NCBI GenBank assembly: GCA_043765375.1
Contig: JAYUJH010000028.1
Coordinates: 12,332 to 76,331, forward strand
DNA: 64,000 nucleotides
Direction of reading: 5' to 3'
Source: Alphaproteobacteria bacterium
GTDB lineage: Bacteria > Pseudomonadota > Alphaproteobacteria > Rickettsiales > UBA998
Shown: piece by piece, positions 3,439-63,304 of the stretch
Position numbering within the stretch: the stretch's first letter is position 1
How the letters are laid out: every line of letters starts with the position of its first letter
Notes under the pieces: generated by a model
Told to the model about the DNA's origin: nothing
Seen by the model: the letters and a program-made list of their open reading frames with translations, nothing else
Database searches by the model: none
Program-made: the position numbers and the translations under genes

Positions 3439-3662
3439 GGCTTTTTTGATGTGCGTTTTTGCCTGTTGATTGAGTTGTTGAGGTGATGAAAATGCAAAAC
3501 TGTTGTTTGAGAGCAACAGTTTTATGTTTTGAGTGAAAAAGAATGGCAAAAAACAGTGTTATTGTTTGTAACTTATCAGTTGATAGCTTATAAATATTTT
3601 TAAGGAAGCGCATTTGATTGCGTGACTCATATGTTTAACAATTAAGGTAATGTAGAAATAGG

Positions 3663-4799
3663 ATGAAAATCATGAAAAAACTATTACTCGGAACAACTGG
3701 GCTAGTGGCTGCTGCTGCTATGTTCGCAAGTGCAGCTAATGCACAAACTCCGAAAGTAACTATTGGTGGATTTGCTAACTTTGAAGCTGGCGGAACTAGT
3801 GACGATTTAGATAAAGGTCAACGTACACAAGGGTTCCGTAATGATACGGAGTTGTCATTCCGTGTTGACGGTAAAATGGATAACAGAGATCTAGGATATG
3901 GTGCTGTTGTTGATATGGAAGCTGATGTTAGCGGTGACGTTAATAATCAAGGTCTAAATGCAGCTCGCACTTACGTTTATTTGGACGGAATGTGGGGACG
4001 CTTTGAACTAGGTTCAAATCAAGGTGCATCATCAACTATGCGTGTTGATGCCTCAACTTTGGCTGCTGCAAGCGGTGGTATTGATGGCTCATGGGTGTTC
4101 TTTGCTAACCCAACAGGACAATCTTTTATCACAACTCCAGGTTTGCCAACTGAGCACGGTTCTTTGACTTCATTGAATGATGAAAGCCAATCAAACGCAA
4201 ACAAAATCACTTATTATTCTCCACGTTACCAAGGATTCCAAGTTGGCGTTGGCTATCAGCCAGATCAAACAGATCGTGGACAAATCGTAAGTCGCAACAA
4301 AAATAATGCTGGACAATCTGGTAACATTTTTGATGCTGGTTTGAACTATGAAAACCAATTTGGTGATTTCTCAGTAGCAGCTGCTGCAACTGGTCAAATG
4401 GGTTCAGGCGAAACTAACGCAACCCAAGATTTAGCAGCATATAATGTTGGTGGATTGGTTGGTTATATGGGCTTCAAACTAGCAGCATCATATGCTGATT
4501 GGTCTGATAGCAACAGCTTGAACAATAACGCCGATGGCAGCTATTGGACAGTTGGTGCAGGATATGATTACGGTGCGTTTGGTTCATCTGTAACATATTT
4601 GAAGAGCGAATATAAAGGAACGGCTAGAGCTGCTAATAATAAGTTTGATAACATTGTTGCAAGTGTTGACTATAAACTTGCTCCAGGTTTAACTCCTTAT
4701 GCAGAATATAGCGTTTATAACTTTGATGCTGCTGGTCACGTTCGTGGACAAAACAATAATGGACAAGTATTCTTGATTGGAACACAATTAGCGTTTTAA
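3663..4799 (+). CDS. Outer-membrane porin (alphaproteobacterial general porin type)
   Basis: 378 aa. Signal peptide ends ASAANA-Q, alternating beta-strand pattern rich in G/Y/D/N, C-terminal ...GTQLAF. Confidence 0.8.
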   Translation: MKIMKKLLLGTTGLVAAAAMFASAANAQTPKVTIGGFANFEAGGTSDDLDKGQRTQGFRNDTELSFRVDGKMDNRDLGYGAVVDMEADVSGDVNNQGLNAARTYVYLDGMWGRFELGSNQGASSTMRVDASTLAAASGGIDGSWVFFANPTGQSFITTPGLPTEHGSLTSLNDESQSNANKITYYSPRYQGFQVGVGYQPDQTDRGQIVSRNKNNAGQSGNIFDAGLNYENQFGDFSVAAAATGQMGSGETNATQDLAAYNVGGLVGYMGFKLAASYADWSDSNSLNNNADGSYWTVGAGYDYGAFGSSVTYLKSEYKGTARAANNKFDNIVASVDYKLAPGLTPYAEYSVYNFDAAGHVRGQNNNGQVFLIGTQLAF

Positions 4800-14542: not shown

Positions 14543-14658
14543 GGTGGCCTCCGTAGGGGGCTTAAAGAATATTTCCCCATCAACATTTTTTAATATGTTG
14601 ACGAGTAGACAATGATGGAGTGTTTGAAAAAAACACTTTACTCAATTGTTATAATCCT

Positions 14659-14686
14659 ATTTTACCCCCCCCCCCCCAGATGTCAA
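14659..14686 (-). promoter_or_regulatory. Sigma70-type promoter TTGACA-N16-TAAAAT whose spacer contains a G13 homopolymer (C13 on the plus strand, 14665..14677)
   Basis: The minus strand reads cTTGACAtct-GGGGGGGGGGGGG-TAAAATa, about 115 nt upstream of ATG 14542. Same module as at 36896..36923. Confidence 0.7.
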
Positions 14687-34061: not shown

Positions 34062-35906
34062 ATGAATAATTTTACACAATTTAACTTGCCAGAATCATTG
34101 CAGCAATCATTGCAGCGCATCGGTTTTGATGAGCCAACCCCAATTCAATTGCAATCAATTCCACTTGCACTTGAAGGGCGTGATATTCTCGGTTCAGCGC
34201 AAACTGGAACAGGTAAAACTGGTGCATTTGGGATTCCATTAATTGCCAAATTGCTTGAAAATCCTCGTGGAGTGGCACTAGTGCTAACGCCAACTCGTGA
34301 GCTTGCAACCCAAGTTTTGAAAGCGTTGGAATCTATGATTAGCAAAGCGGATAAAATTAACACAGCGTTGTTGATTGGTGGTGACCCGATGCCAAAACAA
34401 TTGCAACAATTGCGTATGCGTCCACGTTTGATTGTTGGAACTCCGGGGCGGATTAATGATCATCTTGAGCGTGGTAGCTTAATGTTGCATGATGCAGGGT
34501 TTTTGGTGCTTGATGAAACTGATAGAATGCTTGATATGGGCTTTAGTATTCAAATTGATAACATCTTAAAGTTTTTGCCGAAAAAACGCCAAACATTGCT
34601 ATTTTCCGCAACTTTGCCGCATAATATTGTGAGCATGGCGAGCCGTTATATGACCAACCCTGAGCGTGTTTCTGCGGGTAGCCAATCTGCACCAGCAGCG
34701 AACATTAAGCATGAGATTTTGCATGTGTCAGAAGGTGAAAAATATGATACATTATTGGAGCAGTTAAAAGAGCGCACAGGTTCAGTGATTGTGTTTGTGA
34801 AAACCAAATGGAATGCAGAGAAAATGGCAGAGCGTTTGCGTCGTGATTTTCATGAAGCTGATGCAATTCATGGTGATTTGCGCCAAAATAAGCGTGACAA
34901 AGTGATTGCTAACTTCAGAGCGAAGAAATATCGTATTTTAGTAGCAACTGATATCGCTGCTCGTGGTTTGGATATTCCGCATATTGAGCATGTGATTAAC
35001 TTTGATTTGCCACAATGCGCTGAGGATTATATCCACAGAATTGGGCGCACAGCCCGTGCAGGAGCAGAAGGTTCAGCGATATGCTTTATTAGCCGTGAAG
35101 ATAAAGGTAAATGGTCAGCGATTAACCGCTTGTTAGATCCGAATGCACCAGTAGAAAAACGTGAAGCTGGTAATGGTGGCGGCAGAGCTGGCGCAGGACG
35201 CAATGGCAGTGGTGCTAGAGCTGGTGGTGGCGGTTATGGCGGCGGAGGAGCAAGACGCCCCAATTCTGGAGGTGGTGCTGATTGGAAAAGCGATTTCAAA
35301 AAACGTGAAGATGGCTTTAATAATCGTGATGGTGGCAGCCGTGACAGCGCACCAAGGCGTGAAGGTGGTTTCAGAAGTGAAGGTGCTAGAAATGAAGGTT
35401 CAGGTTTCAGGAGCGAACGTCCAGCGGGCGAACGCACTCAGAGAGATCGCAGTGATCGCCCAACGGGTGAACGCAGTTATGGCGAGCGTCCAGCTTTTGA
35501 AGCACGAGCATTTGATGCTAGAACGGATACAAGAGGTGCTGATACACGCAGTTCTGAAGCAAGAGGAGCACGCCGACCAGCTGAAAACTCATCAGAAAGA
35601 AGTGGTTCAGAGAGAACTGCCCCGAGAACAGATGGTTTCAAAGCTGGTGGGTTCAAAGCAAAAGCTCCGTTTAAGTCATCACAAGAAGGTGGTTTCAAGC
35701 GTGATGGTGTAGCTAGAGATGGCGCATCATCAAGGGACGGCGCAGCTAGAGATAGTGTAGCCAGAGATAGTGTAGTTAGAGATGGCGCACCAAGACCTGT
35801 TCGCAATAAATCAAGTGACGGCGCAGCTAGTGGAAGCAGAGATAATGTAGCCAGAGATGGCGCAGCTCCAGCATCACGCAAGCCATATCAACGTCGTACT
35901 GCATAA
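34062..35906 (+). CDS. DEAD-box ATP-dependent RNA helicase (RhlE-like) with ~230-aa Arg/Gly/Asp/Ser-rich repetitive C-terminal tail
   Basis: Has Q-motif F..PTPIQ, AQTGTGKT, PTRELA, DETD (DEAD-box variant LVLDETDRMLDMGF), SAT and HRIGRTARAG. Tail from ~aa 365. Confidence 0.93.
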   Translation: MNNFTQFNLPESLQQSLQRIGFDEPTPIQLQSIPLALEGRDILGSAQTGTGKTGAFGIPLIAKLLENPRGVALVLTPTRELATQVLKALESMISKADKINTALLIGGDPMPKQLQQLRMRPRLIVGTPGRINDHLERGSLMLHDAGFLVLDETDRMLDMGFSIQIDNILKFLPKKRQTLLFSATLPHNIVSMASRYMTNPERVSAGSQSAPAANIKHEILHVSEGEKYDTLLEQLKERTGSVIVFVKTKWNAEKMAERLRRDFHEADAIHGDLRQNKRDKVIANFRAKKYRILVATDIAARGLDIPHIEHVINFDLPQCAEDYIHRIGRTARAGAEGSAICFISREDKGKWSAINRLLDPNAPVEKREAGNGGGRAGAGRNGSGARAGGGGYGGGGARRPNSGGGADWKSDFKKREDGFNNRDGGSRDSAPRREGGFRSEGARNEGSGFRSERPAGERTQRDRSDRPTGERSYGERPAFEARAFDARTDTRGADTRSSEARGARRPAENSSERSGSERTAPRTDGFKAGGFKAKAPFKSSQEGGFKRDGVARDGASSRDGAARDSVARDSVVRDGAPRPVRNKSSDGAASGSRDNVARDGAAPASRKPYQRRTA

Positions 35907-35979: not shown

Positions 35980-36046
35980 GAACTGAATATTTTTGATTGT
36001 TTGATAATGTTATCAATCTTATCATTATAATGTTTTAAGTTTTGTC

Positions 36047-36074
36047 GTCATACAAGCGGAGGCTGGTATCCATA
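36047..36074. repeat. Dispersed palindromic repeat, degenerate copy (gtcatacaagcggaggctggtatccata)
   Basis: Same ends as the 57898 copy, with a partly eroded left arm. Intergenic. Confidence 0.55.
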
Positions 36075-36144
36075 TAAAAATCCTCATCATGAAAAATACC
36101 ACTATAATCATAAATAATTAACCCTGTATGTGCTATAATGAAAC

Positions 36145-36849
36145 ATGGAAAAAGATGGTAGTTTGCTGCATATATACGGCTTATGCGAACGAGTGGCGGA
36201 GGGCGCACTTGCTGAACCACTCAACGTCATCACCAATTTTGCATTTTTCGCAACTGCTGCGTTATTATGGCGAGAATGCCGAGCTAACTCGGATTTGCGT
36301 GGCTTAAAAATATATGATATCAAATTGTTAATTGCTTTAATATTCTCAATTGGGCTGTGTAGTTCAATTTTTCACCTGCACCCAACACCATTAACTGAAT
36401 TATTGGATACGCTAGTCATCGCCATATTCATTATATTTTTCTTTCTTAGCGTGATGGTGCGAATTGTTAAATGCAAAATAATGGAGACATTTGTTTGCTT
36501 CATGGCTTATGCGGGTTTTACTCATATTTTGGTAACGCAATTTCCCAACGCCATGAATGGCTCAATCGCTTATCTTTCCACCATGACAACATTGATATTT
36601 ATTGCATTATATCTCAATCTCAAGCGGCGGGCGACTGCTCGGGCTTTTTTGTTAGCAGCAATAATTGGCATGATTTCGCTATTTTTCCGCTCAATTGATA
36701 ACGCCGTATGTGACAAAATACCGATTGGAACGCATTTCATGTGGCACATGTTGAATGGATTATTAATTTATATCGTGATGATGCAATTAATTCGCAATGT
36801 CAATCGCCGTGCCAGAATGTTGCGGGAGGCGAGCCTCCATTTCGCTTGA
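36145..36849 (+). CDS. Seven-TM membrane protein, ceramidase-like (alkaline ceramidase/PAQR-like fold) family
   Basis: 234 aa. Has N-terminal CE..A.GALAEPLNVITNFAFF (family-typical cCE...EP.N..SN..F pattern), multiple TM helices, and conserved H in FHLHP and HFMWH. Confidence 0.5.
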   Translation: MEKDGSLLHIYGLCERVAEGALAEPLNVITNFAFFATAALLWRECRANSDLRGLKIYDIKLLIALIFSIGLCSSIFHLHPTPLTELLDTLVIAIFIIFFFLSVMVRIVKCKIMETFVCFMAYAGFTHILVTQFPNAMNGSIAYLSTMTTLIFIALYLNLKRRATARAFLLAAIIGMISLFFRSIDNAVCDKIPIGTHFMWHMLNGLLIYIVMMQLIRNVNRRARMLREASLHFA

Positions 36850-36895
36850 GGAAATGAAAGGTTTATTAATTTATATTAATAGTTGCATTTCTTGC

Positions 36896-36923
36896 TTGAC
36901 ATTCTCGGGGGGGGGGGTAAAAT
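36896..36923 (+). promoter_or_regulatory. Sigma70-type promoter TTGACA-N16-TAAAAT whose spacer contains a G11 homopolymer (36907..36917)
   Basis: The plus strand reads cTTGACAttctc-GGGGGGGGGGG-TAAAATa, 78 nt upstream of ATG 37001. Same module as at 14659..14686. Confidence 0.7.
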
Positions 36924-37000
36924 AATTAATGAATATAGTCTTGTCATGCGCATTTGATACGTGTGAAACTATTAAGTTGTCGTTTATGTAATGTAAAAAA

Positions 37001-37498
37001 ATGACCATTATAACACTTGAGCAAACTCTACCCGTATTGGCTTCATTAAGCCAATCGGAGCTAAGAAATTTGTCTCAATTAAAAGCCTTGGAGTTGTTAT
37101 TTGGGTTTTCTAGTGAGATTGATCAATTTGGTATCGCTAAAAAAGCCGAAAACCTTGTAGCAATGCGAGAAATATGGTTAGGAAAGTCGGATAACTTTTT
37201 TGGCTATGAAGTTAGTGTCAAAGGCGAAAACCTACAATTAATTGTAGGTTTTATGGCACAAGAGTTCAGAAAAGGAAAGACTGCTGATTTCTATCGTGTT
37301 GATAGAAAAATATGTGCAATGTGTTATAAGGACATTTTCGCGGAATTGCCAAGGGTTTGGCAAAAAGCGGCTAATCGCCTTATGCCAATGTCAGCCACAA
37401 TGGCAAAATCACATATTCAAAGGCAAGCTGAGGCAGAAATGCTTGAAGAACTTGTCAATAAAATTGGATTTGGCGAAGTTACCATCATAGTGCTTTAA
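37001..37498 (+). CDS. Hypothetical cytoplasmic protein (165 aa), no recognisable family, under the poly-G spacer promoter
   Basis: Clean ORF with its own promoter (36896..36923) and terminator (37528..37565). No TM segment or signal peptide seen. Confidence 0.55.
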   Translation: MTIITLEQTLPVLASLSQSELRNLSQLKALELLFGFSSEIDQFGIAKKAENLVAMREIWLGKSDNFFGYEVSVKGENLQLIVGFMAQEFRKGKTADFYRVDRKICAMCYKDIFAELPRVWQKAANRLMPMSATMAKSHIQRQAEAEMLEELVNKIGFGEVTIIVL

Positions 37499-37527
37499 TC
37501 CTCAGTTTGCTCTCACCTTGATGAGCC

Positions 37528-37565
37528 TCCTCCTCTGCATTGCAATGCTTTGGAGGATTTTTTTA
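37528..37565 (+). terminator. Rho-independent terminator after ORF 37001..37498
   Basis: tcctcc...ggagga outer stem enclosing the perfect palindrome gcattgcaatgc, followed by a T-run. Confidence 0.6.
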
Positions 37566-37681
37566 TGGAGTTATGGGAATGACGGTTTGCATTTATAGTT
37601 GGTTTTTTGCAAATATACCAAAGTTACTGTTATGTATCAAATTATGCGTATAGCATATTATATGTTGATATATTATGCAAT

Positions 37682-38938
37682 TCACATTCCAATTTCGGCG
37701 AAAATCATTTGCAGTGCTTCCACCAATTCGTCCATCATTAGTTCGGTGTGCATTGGGGTTGGGGTCAGGCGCAAACGCTCAGCCCCTCGTGGGACTGTAG
37801 GATAATTAATCGGTTGCACATAAATCTGATGTTCGTCTCGCAGTTTGTCAGAAACTAGCTTGCATTTTATCGCATCATTAATCATCACGGGGATAATGTG
37901 CGTTGGTGTTGAGATGTGGTTAATGTTAGCTTTGGCAAGTTTTTGCTTTAATGTCTTCGCTGCTAGCTGATGAGATTCTCGCAATTCATTATGTTGCATT
38001 AAATAGCGCACGCTAGCATTTGCACCCGCTGCTTGCGCTGGTGGCATAGCAGTGGTAAAAATAAATGCGGGAGCATAAGATCGTATCGCATCAATAATTG
38101 CATTATTTGCGGCAATATATCCCCCCATAACGCCATATGCTTTTCCAAGTGTCCCTTGAATAATATCCACATTATTCATTAGCCCTAATTTTTCAGCAAC
38201 TCCAGCCCCCCTCATACCATAAAGCCCAACTGCGTGAACTTCATCAAGGTAAGTTATCGCACCAAACTCTTGGGCGAGGGCGCAAATCCCAGCTATATCA
38301 CCAATATCGCCGTCCATAGAATAAACTGATTCAAATGCGATGATTTTTGGTGAATTAGGGGCGCAGGCGGCAAGCAATTCCCGCAAATGTTCAATATCAT
38401 TATGGCGAAATACGTGTTTTTGCAACCCGCTCGCCCGCACCCCTGCAATCATGGAGGCGTGGTTTTTAGCATCAGAAAATATCACTGCATTTGGGAGCAA
38501 TTTACCAAGCGTTGCAAGCGTTGTTTCATTGGCCACATAGCCAGAGGTGAAGGCGAGTGCCGCTTGTTTATGATGTAACTCGGCGAGAGTTTGTTCCAGC
38601 GTGATGATTGCTTGATGCGTTCCAGAGATGTTACGAGTTCCGCCAGCACCAGCACCCATTGCATCAATCGCTTCGTGCATGGAATCCAGCACTACCTCAT
38701 GATGCCCCATTCCGAGATAATCATTGCTGCACCAGATGGTTATGTCTTTGCCAGTAGTATGGCTTTTGGCAACGGGAAAGCTACCAACTACTCGCTCAAT
38801 ATGATGGAACTCACGATATCTACCTTCGCATTTCAAAATATTAACTGAATTGATGAATAATTGGTTATAATCAACTATGTTTGATTTTGCTATTTCGTGC
38901 AATTGTGGTTCACGAGTTTGTGATACATTGTTGTTCAT
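37682..38938 (-). CDS. hemA: 5-aminolevulinate synthase (start ambiguous; ORF is open up to 39064)
   Basis: Has [17 protein letters not shown], and PLP-lysine region GTLGKAYG. The conserved core starts at ...DYNQLF. ATG 38938 gives a normal length, while 39064 adds an Asn/Ile/Asp-rich extension. Confidence 0.92.
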
Positions 38939-39273
38939 CTGGATATTATGTTGATAAGCATCATTTATATGAATACTATTCTGATTGATTTTATTTACAT
39001 CAATATCATCTATATCAATATTATTTTTATTAACTAATAATTGTACTTTCATATAATAATACATAGCACAAATTGGTAATTAGTTCACATTAAAAATACC
39101 TAATAATACAGATAATGCAGAAAAATATTTCATAGTTATTGTTTGTAAAACTGATATTAACCTTACAAATAAATAATATCCCGCTTTTCGCATAATAATG
39201 CTTGCAAATTAACCAACTATTTTGCAATGTGTGAGTAGGTTATGGTTTGTTAAAATAAATTGAGAGAGTGAAT

Positions 39274-43570: not shown

Positions 43571-43600
43571 AAAAAACCCTAAACAAAAAAACCCTAAACA
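43571..43600. repeat. 15-nt tandem duplication (aaaaaaccctaaaca x2) overlapping the der stop codon
   Basis: Read directly. Confidence 0.75.
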
Positions 43601-45045
43601 TATGGATTTTTTGTGGTGCGCAGTAGCAACCGAATCGGCACACCCTCCAAGCCAAATGCGAGGCGAAGATTATTCACAAGGTAGCGCAAATATGAATCTG
43701 GCACTTCCTTCTCACTTTTATTGGCGAACAACACAAATGTCGGCGGGCGAGATTTGATTTGCGTGATATAGCGAAACTTCAACCGCCTGCCATTAACAAG
43801 CGGAGGAGAATGCTTCTCAATATTCGCCGCTAACCACTGATTAAGTTGATTAGTTGAGATGCGCTTATTCCAAATCACATATTGTCGCATGATTGCTTTC
43901 ATCAAATCGTCAATCCCCTCAGATTCGGTTGCTATCATCGGAATAACGGGGATTCCCTTCATTTGCGGCACAAGATGCGAAAGATGATAATCAAATGCTT
44001 TCATATATTCCGCATCTACATTAATCATATCCGCTTTATTCAGCACAATCACGCAGGCACGCCCTTCTTTCTCCACCAGCCCTGCTAGAGTATTATCCTG
44101 TTTTTCCAGCGGAATTGTCGCATCAAGCACCAGCACCACCACTTCCGCATATTTCAGTGCGCCAAGCGAGCTTTGCACTGACATTTGCTCAAGATCGTGA
44201 ATAATATTAGATTTGCGCCGCATTCCCGCAGTATCAATCAGTTTTAATGCTTGTCCATTCCAATTAAATGCAACCGCAACAGAATCACGGGTGATGCCCG
44301 CCTCTGCTCCAACTAGCACCCTATCTTCTTGCAATATCGCATTAATGATAGTTGATTTTCCTGCATTTGGCCTGCCCATAATCGCAATGCTGATTGGCTT
44401 TTCGCCTTGTTCAATGGTAAGATTTTCTTGTTCAGGGGGCAGATATGGCAATAACGCATCATAAAGCAAGCTAAGCCCTTCACCATGTTCAGCAGAAAAC
44501 GGCACAGCCTCGCCCAAACCAAGGCGCAACGCATCAAGCAAATTATCCTCAACTTTGCTCATCGCCTCCGCTTTATTACCAAGCAAGATTATTGGCTTGC
44601 CGACTTTGCGCACCACTCGCACAAAGCGTTCGTCTTCAGGCGTGACTCCGCTGCGCGCATCAAGCACAAATAACAAAATATCAGCCTCGCCTAGAGATTG
44701 CATTGCTTGCGCACTCATTCTCCCAGCCAAGCTGTCTTTGCCTAAATCATCAAGCCCGGGGGTATCAATAATAGTGAACTCCAGCGAGCCAATATTTCCT
44801 GTGCCATATTTTCTGTCACGAGTGACTCCCGCTTCATTATGGACGATTGCATCACGCTTGCCGCATAAACGATTATAAATAGTAGATTTACCAACATTTG
44901 GTCTGCCAATTATCGCAATTTTCAATTGTGGCGTGGCTGGGGGCAATATTTCTGAACCAATTTCTGTGAATGATGTTTCTTCATGGAACATTTCTGAACT
45001 TAGGGTTTCTAAACTTGGATTTTCTGATTGTTTGGGGGGGAGCAT
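43594..45045 (-). CDS. der: Ribosome biogenesis GTPase Der (EngA), two GTPase domains plus KH-like domain
   Basis: Has GRPNVGKST twice (IAIIGRPNVGKST, IAIMGRPNAGKST), DTPG/DTAG, NKAE/NKAD. The N-terminal ~40 aa extension makes the start uncertain. Confidence 0.93.
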   Translation of the reverse strand: MLPPKQSENPSLETLSSEMFHEETSFTEIGSEILPPATPQLKIAIIGRPNVGKSTIYNRLCGKRDAIVHNEAGVTRDRKYGTGNIGSLEFTIIDTPGLDDLGKDSLAGRMSAQAMQSLGEADILLFVLDARSGVTPEDERFVRVVRKVGKPIILLGNKAEAMSKVEDNLLDALRLGLGEAVPFSAEHGEGLSLLYDALLPYLPPEQENLTIEQGEKPISIAIMGRPNAGKSTIINAILQEDRVLVGAEAGITRDSVAVAFNWNGQALKLIDTAGMRRKSNIIHDLEQMSVQSSLGALKYAEVVVLVLDATIPLEKQDNTLAGLVEKEGRACVIVLNKADMINVDAEYMKAFDYHLSHLVPQMKGIPVIPMIATESEGIDDLMKAIMRQYVIWNKRISTNQLNQWLAANIEKHSPPLVNGRRLKFRYITQIKSRPPTFVLFANKSEKEVPDSYLRYLVNNLRLAFGLEGVPIRLLLRTTKNPYV

Positions 45046-63118: not shown

Positions 63119-63140
63119 ATTATTTTAGGGTTTTATTTTA

Positions 63141-63200
63141 GGGTTTAGGGGTGAGGGTATAGGGGCTAGGGGCTAGATTTTTTCACTATACCCTAAACCC
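63141..63200. repeat. G-rich imperfect inverted repeat (gggtttagggg-tga-gggtatag ... ctataccctaaaccc) in the trmD upstream region
   Basis: Arms pair with a 4-nt bulge. The loop contains a taggggc tandem. The TTTAGGG/CCCTAAA motif also occurs at 17062 and 43577..43600. Confidence 0.6.
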
Positions 63201-63304
63201 TAATCCTTGTCCCCTAAAAAAAGATTGCTTTTTTTACGTTTTTATTGGATAATTTAAGGGTAAAAGTTTTTTATGCCGTATTTTTTAATACGGCAACATA
63301 TATT

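Follow-up and report, generated by a model that had tools for sequence, protein, structure and literature searches.

A putative poly-G spacer promoter and its conserved leader ahead of a hypervariable gene in an uncultured alphaproteobacterium

Textbook examples of promoters tuned by homopolymers come from host-adapted pathogens, among them Neisseria, Haemophilus and Treponema. In the 64,000-nt stretch of DNA analyzed here (hereafter the window), which derives from an uncultured alphaproteobacterium, a promoter-like sequence has a run of eleven G residues in the spacer that separates its −35 and −10 hexamers. The locus raises the question whether the length of this run sets the transcription of the gene behind it, or whether the run is a fixed part of an ordinary promoter. 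The features discussed below are the following:

36895-36902, plus strand: extended −35 element CTTGACAT, an exact pattern match
36896-36901, plus strand: −35 hexamer TTGACA; TTGACAT is invariant at the homologous loci L123, L126, L129, L130 and L131
36902-36917, plus strand: spacer of 16 nt composed of ttctc and G11, the latter (36907-36917) touching the −10 hexamer
36918-36923, plus strand: −10 hexamer TAAAAT; TAAAATA extends to 36924
36944-36966, plus strand: inverted repeat UCAUGCG-N9-CGUGUGA, then TGAAAC, kept in five loci
36963-37004, plus strand: candidate upstream ORF (uORF) of 13 codons beginning GTG AAA, its TGA stop sharing an ATGA with the main start codon
37001-37498, plus strand: gene of a 165-aa protein from a small, fast-evolving family, predicted to be all-alpha
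37528-37564, plus strand: terminator-like hairpin UCCUCC...GGAGGA (37528-37557) followed by T7 (37558-37564)
14659-14686, minus strand: sister promoter TTGACA-tct-G13-TAAAAT with a 16-nt spacer, ahead of an 85-aa membrane-like ORF (14542-14285)

The plus strand from 36895 to 36924 reads cTTGACA-ttctc-GGGGGGGGGGG-TAAAATa. In a scan for consensus promoters, 36896-36923 scored 11 out of 12 and was the top site within 36000-38000, and the intergenic region ahead of ORF 37001-37498 held no superior promoter. Judging from the sequence, 77 nt separate the −10 hexamer from the ATG of this ORF. Coordinates and scan score thus bear out the anatomy proposed in an earlier, sequence-only reading of this DNA, namely TTGACA and TAAAAT separated by ttctc and G11 in a 16-nt spacer. 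That reading had also claimed a design common to this site and the copy at 14659-14686, and indeed both loci fit CTTGACAT-N15-TAAAATA with zero mismatches. On the plus strand, the tract of the sister locus appears as a C run at 14665-14677. A comparison of both loci limits their likeness to the 30-nt core, and we therefore rejected the idea that the two promoters are copies of one larger mobile or duplicated cassette. The sister-locus leader of ~110 nt (14543-14658, minus strand) contains the inverted repeats AGTGTTT-ttttc-AAACACT and TCAACAT-attaaaaa-ATGTTGA as well as a strong GGAGG ribosome-binding site, and bears no relation to that at 36930-37000. A word-index protein search with the 85-aa product of the sister locus recovered only the query itself and no homolog.

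At a G+C content of 40.9%, the window contains four G/C runs of at least 7 nt, the two longest of which are those of the two promoters. A G7 lies at 45034 and a C7 at 28811. A first-order Markov model predicts 0.003 runs of at least 11 nt and 0.00015 runs of at least 13 nt per window, and a chance origin of the G11 and G13 runs is excluded. Promoter-like sites across the window revealed no preferred spacer length, as they were too noisy in this A+T-rich DNA.

ORF 37001-37498 carries the marks of a native gene. Its codon-usage score is 0.23 in frame 0 (mean of the window genes, 0.32 +/- 0.09) and negative in the other frames, and its GC1/2/3 profile is typical for the window. It has no Shine-Dalgarno sequence, which is also true of most genes in the window. 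The hairpin behind it qualifies as an intrinsic (Rho-independent) terminator, with a minimum free energy of -20.4 kcal/mol and z = -2.1; a simple terminator scan had overlooked it due to an inner stem within its loop. The ORF is therewith enclosed by a promoter and a terminator of its own and is convergent with the 5-aminolevulinate synthase (ALAS) gene at 37682-39064 on the minus strand. This arrangement supports, as far as sequence can, the earlier claim that the promoter drives an ORF with its own terminator.

A word-index search of 5.8 billion protein clusters matched the 165-aa protein (P0001) only to itself. Exhaustive HMMER searching of 1.84 billion representatives, however, recovered seven further clusters (P0002-P0008; 140-179 aa; E-values of 8e-31 to 8.5e-4), which are 28-41% identical to P0001 in the alignment. 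The family alignment conserves LKALEL, KENL, FFGY, FMAxEFRKG, KICxxC (its CxxC being C105/C108) and one invariant arginine. Metagenome scans employing the 165-aa protein or a four-sequence alignment yielded no relatives. Pfam returned only DUF2292 (E = 0.017, under its cut-off), NCBIfam, PADLOC and PHROGs gave no significant match, and a profile search of the PDB gave E-values of at least 0.46. AlphaFold, supplied with the eight-sequence alignment, produced a six-helix model with a pLDDT of 89.4 and a pTM of 0.86 (a single-sequence model reached a pLDDT of only 45). Foldseek comparison of the pLDDT 89 model with the PDB and BFVD gave best E-values of 0.6-1.5 and TM-scores of at most 0.30. On reading the sequence, we noted no obvious signal peptide or other surface mark. 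The sequence-only reading had called the protein an orphan of no recognizable family. The second half of this statement holds with respect to curated families, and the confident all-helical model, from a structure prediction which that reading had itself proposed, has no counterpart in the PDB or BFVD; the orphan status does not survive the seven homologous clusters. The same reading had named a lack of conservation as grounds for doubt, and the gene turned out to be kept as a family, though a hypervariable one. Given native codon usage and homologs without a curated match, ORF 37001-37498 is a real gene of a small, undescribed family.

We then compared the DNA around each homolog. Seven lineages had a readable promoter region, and six of them share the architecture below (−35 hexamer, sequence preceding the tract, tract, −10 hexamer, spacer length):

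Window (P0001): TTGACA, ttctc, G11, TAAAAT, 16 nt
L126 (P0003): TTGACA, ttctcgt, G9, TAGAAT, 16 nt
L123-125 (P0002): TTGACA, ttaac, G7AGG, TAAAAT, 15 nt
L129 (P0006): TTGACA, ttaatt, G8, TAAACT, 14 nt
L131 (P0008): TTGACA, ttaagc, G14, TAAAAT, 20 nt
L130 (P0007): TTGACA, ttaacaagaggagtga, no tract, TAAAAT, 16 nt

At the tract position, L130 holds AAGAGGAGTGA, a decayed tract. L128 (P0005) has a different promoter together with a Shine-Dalgarno sequence, and the sequence of L127 (P0004) ends 71 nt upstream of the gene, which makes its promoter unreadable. A G run touches the −10 hexamer in five of the seven lineages. Both hexamers are conserved at five homologous loci, with TAAAAT, TAGAAT or TAAACT as the −10, while the surrounding intergenic sequence varies. 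Hexamers kept across lineages in this manner are under selection, which argues that 36896-36923 is a genuine promoter; the earlier promoter claim is thereby strengthened from the homologous loci of other organisms. In the A+T-rich loci that we fetched, the promoter tract is the sole G/C run of at least 8 nt except for one coding G9 in L131, and the run thus appears to be maintained rather than decaying. This G9 (3536-3544, on the coding strand) falls within the histidyl-tRNA synthetase gene of the same organism whose promoter tract is G14; in A+T-rich genomes, such a run in an essential gene is unusual.

Between lineages, the tract varies from 7 to 14 nt and the spacer from 14 to 20 nt with the hexamers at consensus, bearing in mind that metagenome assemblies can misstate homopolymers such as G14 and G8 by 1-2 bases. 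Consensus hexamers at spacers of 14 and 20 nt would fit promoters that are only temporarily off. The sequence-only reading had suggested selection on total spacer length from the two window loci. At close range this holds, the two window loci and L126 all having 16 nt; farther away it does not, with 15 nt in a probable paralog and 14 and 20 nt in distant homologs.

The syntenic locus L126, which belongs to a close relative, allowed us to compare the gene with its surroundings. The upstream ceramidase-like protein is 89% identical between the window and L126, and the 3′ end of the downstream ALAS gene (window 37694-37888) is 84% identical in nucleotide sequence. Promoter and leader together reach 85% nucleotide identity, and the larger segment 36110-36987, comprising the ceramidase-like gene, promoter and leader, 77.5%. 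By comparison, the protein of ORF 37001-37498 shares 35% identity with P0003 from the syntenic site, with no detectable nucleotide likeness (P0003 is 50% identical to P0002). The blastn alignment of the window with L126 halts shortly ahead of the ATG and restarts in the ALAS gene, and the terminator of ORF 37001-37498 shows no nucleotide similarity to L126 either. Flanks at 84-89% and a promoter-leader segment at 85%, set against 35% for the ORF, indicate that the promoter is conserved and that the gene behind it is hypervariable or has been replaced. Judging from these alignments, the coding sequences behind the conserved head diverge very fast or are exchanged between paralogs or strains. 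In Neisseria, Haemophilus and Treponema, contingency loci typically pair a fast-evolving gene with a repeat-controlled promoter (PMC5084427, PMC7864442). One further locus, L142, was considered as a member of this set on account of a ceramidase-like gene with 85% identity in a genome of 1.9 Mb, and was rejected as no family member lies downstream.

P0002 (L123, L124 and L125) is a protein of 167 aa with 41% identity to P0001 in the alignment; its gene (L123, 4001-4504; promoter at 3900-3926) adjoins mutS in convergent orientation. The contigs stem from the same samples as the window and correlate with it in tetranucleotide composition at r = 0.978 (0.966-0.99 for 8-kb pieces of the window itself), and no housekeeping gene is common to both. 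Taken together, these observations suggest that P0002 is probably a paralog in the same genome and hence a third locus of the poly-G spacer design. The sequence-only reading had proposed a few stochastically switched genes, a group that would gain P0002 as a probable third member. Being interrupted, its G7AGG tract is presumably stabilized.

Conservation of the head extends beyond the promoter. Over its whole length of ~120 nt, the head is 85% identical to L126 and 74% identical to L123 (over 121 nt for promoter and leader of P0002). Within the leader, five loci share the repeat consensus TCATGCG-N8-11-CGyrTGA followed by TGAAAC, with a loop of 8-11 nt. The seven pairs of this repeat are conserved in the five sequences, and all changes are confined to the 3′ arm and give G-U pairs. 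We found no compensatory double changes among the five sequences, the leader folded no better than its shuffles (z = 0.22), and Rfam gave no match for it at gathering or relaxed thresholds. The one-sided G-U changes and the variable loop make an RNA hairpin somewhat likelier than a fixed DNA operator. Within the 3′ arm of the repeat, six of eight loci have an NTG-AAA-C start, from which candidate uORFs of 5-22 codons would run. In two loci, the window and L131, stop codon and main ATG overlap in an ATGA; the uORFs of L123 and L127 extend past the main start by 17-35 nt, and those of L130 and L126 end 4 nt and 21 nt ahead of the main ORF, respectively. The peptide sequence of the uORF is not conserved among the loci. 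The ATGA overlap suggests, speculatively, that the uORF might be translationally coupled to the main ATG of a gene without a Shine-Dalgarno sequence.

How far the promoter design itself is spread was assessed by a scan of species genomes with the pattern TTGACA-N1-7-G9-N0-5-TAWAAT. At least 120 species have a consensus promoter with a G run of at least 9 nt in its spacer, and the matches listed are mostly metagenome-assembled genomes of Clostridia and Bacilli. The host organism is absent among the at least 120 matches listed. Spacers among the matches listed (L002-L121) measure 13-21 nt, and none of 10-12 nt occurs among them, although the pattern permitted such lengths. The run touches the −10 hexamer in 58 of the 120 matches listed (48%), and an ORF begins within 300 nt downstream in 98 of them (82%). 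By a rough hand estimate for random sequence of equal base composition, a few tens of chance matches would be expected in the whole collection. The poly-G spacer design is widespread and occurs in many phyla. This renders the design itself less novel, yet suggests a general phenomenon that is under-studied. The scan with its at least 120 species suggests that poly-G spacer promoters are far commoner than the few studied cases, and our literature search found no paper that joins Rickettsiales, phase variation and homopolymeric promoter tracts.

What, then, does the tract do? Among the features that define the slippage-tuned sigma-70 promoters of the porA and tp0126 kind are an uninterrupted homopolymer long enough for slippage (about 8 nt or more), as G11 and G13 both are, and the placement of this homopolymer inside the spacer of the promoter that serves the downstream gene, as the arrangement at this locus indicates. 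With these two features present at the sequence level, we incline to the reading that 36896-36923 is such a promoter, though with modest assurance. On this reading, the site would be a sigma-70-type promoter of the 165-aa gene with G11 as most of its spacer. Slipped-strand mispairing at replication would be expected to insert or delete G residues, a changed G count would change the distance between −35 and −10, and transcription of the 165-aa gene would thereby be set by tract length. For tp0126 of T. pallidum, an ompW homolog with poly-G between −35 and −10, the optimum spacing is 17 nt (PMC7864442). A promoter with 16 nt would be active and one step short of such an optimum, so that either gain or loss of one G would alter the output, akin to a "volume control" instead of a pure on/off switch. 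Promoter, leader hairpin and perhaps the short uORF would form a conserved regulatory head, behind which the coding sequence diverges fast or gets replaced. Promoter activity, the transcription start, slippage within the population and tract-length-dependent expression are inferences here, while the sequence anatomy, the hexamers kept at homologous loci, the tract and spacer lengths that differ between lineages and the hypervariability of the gene are observed. The lack of surface marks in the 165-aa protein counts against the slippage reading, as most classical phase-variable genes differ in this respect.

The main rival is a static, constitutive promoter held at 16 nt. Here, the G run would be a conserved spacer element whose length is kept by selection without any regulatory slippage, for example a rigid G·C block beside the −10 hexamer that tunes strength or the response to supercoiling. 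We regard this as possible but doubtful. One argument for it comes from the assemblies of the host strain. G11 is found in six of six assemblies with the gene, with 0 mismatches across the other 767 nt, and G13 in four of four contigs carrying the sister locus. These assemblies represent one strain from two biosamples, SAMN19433748/9 (runs SRR14689464/5), as consensus sequences that are blind to minority lengths; no other strain of the host occurs in the searched databases. No length polymorphism was seen among the six G11 and four G13 consensus assemblies of the two biosamples, and the uniform lengths therefore lend no support to switching. Also, the mutS gene found in what is probably the same genome means that slippage rates need not be high. 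The two window loci and L126 all have spacers of exactly 16 nt, which would likewise fit stabilizing selection on a static promoter: the L126 tract, GTG9, occupies the same 11 nt as G11 with one substitution, a G-to-T change that kept the total length. L130 retains a 16-nt spacer without any tract, and G runs touching the −10 hexamer are common across phyla, as judged from the matches listed in our scan. Against this, other lineages have spacers of 14, 15 and 20 nt between intact consensus hexamers. Moreover, runs as long as this are unstable by nature, so that the uninterrupted upkeep of the tract would itself need explaining, and we know of no spacer function that needs 11-13 identical G residues.

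Control might also be physiological rather than mutational, if a regulator recognized the G/C tract by sequence or structure, for instance through a protein that binds poly(dG)·poly(dC) or through a non-B conformation of the DNA, in concert with the inverted repeat of the leader. Since the whole head is conserved including TCATGCG-N9-CGyrTGA and TGAAAC, some added regulation is likely. The tract itself, however, varies in length and composition (G8 to G14, interrupted, or absent) in a way unlike a binding site, and the sister locus at 14659-14686 has the core promoter alone in common and none of the leader elements. To our knowledge, a lone G11 run also cannot form a stable intramolecular quadruplex. 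Even with the precedent of T. pallidum, where a CRP homolog acts jointly with poly-G length (PMC7864442), we consider such a site quite improbable. Finally, an origin of the G run as a sequencing or assembly artefact, e.g. from the poly-G of two-color Illumina chemistry, is effectively refuted: although all data are metagenome assemblies with error-prone homopolymer lengths, the tract lies well inside its contigs, which measure 10-237 kb, is identical in six assemblies from three pipelines and bordered by perfect hexamers on both sides, and organisms from other studies also have a tract at the orthologous position.

The host appears to be a Rickettsiales-like alphaproteobacterium of low G+C content, as several features suggest. 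The window encodes ALAS, an alpha-type isocitrate dehydrogenase (TIGR02924) and FliE. Homologs of the ceramidase-like neighbor are named "[Alphaproteobacteria bacterium]" and "[Rickettsiales bacterium]", and relatives carry a gene resembling the Rickettsia 17-kDa antigen and an Elm1-like gene. Judging by the sample label BUSI22-1, the material probably comes from the biofilms of glacier-fed streams whose metagenomes were described by Busi et al. 2022 (PRJNA733707; PMC9021309); a literature search with the sample and run accessions yielded no paper.

A few further observations concern other parts of the window. The ALAS protein (37682-39064, minus strand) has a low-complexity N-terminal extension of ~60 aa with many Asn and Ile residues, which falls outside the family-model match beginning at residue 65. 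A DEAD-box helicase (34062-35906) ends in a repetitive C-terminal tail of ~230 aa rich in Gly, Arg, Ser, Asp and Ala, and its gene contains a tandem repeat of period 15 at 35703-35785. Two intergenic regions, 43571-43600 and 63120-63222, share the motif CCCTAAAC / TTAGGGTT, with two occurrences each of AAAAAACCCTAAACA and TTATTTTAGGGTT. The four exact copies compare with 0.96 expected, and the motif may be bound by a regulator.

In a low-G+C, uncultured alphaproteobacterium, probably of a glacier-stream biofilm, the poly-G spacer device occurs two to three times. If the switching is real, bet-hedging by contingency loci reaches Rickettsiales-like bacteria of environmental or symbiotic habit, and attention is drawn to a protein family with a likely part in some conflict or interaction; if it is not, the site is an unusual but otherwise ordinary strong promoter. 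The slippage reading can be widened into a joint one, which we offer tentatively and deem rather unlikely as a whole. A conserved "expression head" of tract promoter, hairpin and uORF would be common to paralogous, fast-diversifying genes of a new all-helical fold in uncultured Rickettsiales-like alphaproteobacteria of environmental biofilms. It would provide heritable stochastic switching by slippage of the tract and, at the same time, a homology arm for cassette exchange among paralogs or strains, and would so constitute a contingency-locus system beyond the classical host-restricted pathogens that controls a likely conflict or interaction protein. The main interest of the locus lies in a conserved head ahead of a hypervariable gene with a predicted novel fold, outside the classical pathogens.

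Known systems resemble the window locus to different degrees. Repeats in the core promoters of N. meningitidis opc (poly-C) and H. influenzae hifA/hifB (TA repeats) alter promoter geometry (references cited in PMC5084427; PMC7864442), as proposed here. The opc tract overlaps the −35, whereas the run in the window touches the −10, and hif employs a dinucleotide repeat that serves divergent promoters, in contrast to the mononucleotide run of a single unidirectional promoter. In T. pallidum (tp0126/tpr), several unlinked genes of one genome have a common poly-G design, as do the loci of the window. There, the products are outer-membrane proteins, and at tprE/G/J/L the tract is found directly ahead of the transcription start and not strictly in the spacer. 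The layout of the window locus matches tp0126 and also porA of N. meningitidis, in which poly-G lies between −10 and −35 and the expression level tracks spacer length (PMC7864442). For T. pallidum, within-isolate heterogeneity of 7-11 G has been measured (PMC7864442). Switching of porA has likewise been measured, while the window locus is known from consensus sequences. PorA is a porin on the surface of a host-restricted pathogen; the window product is a helical protein without secretory appearance from an uncultured environmental alphaproteobacterium, with promoter hexamers at or near consensus. Common to porA and the window locus are a G homopolymer in the spacer of a sigma-70 promoter and a fast-evolving gene downstream of it.
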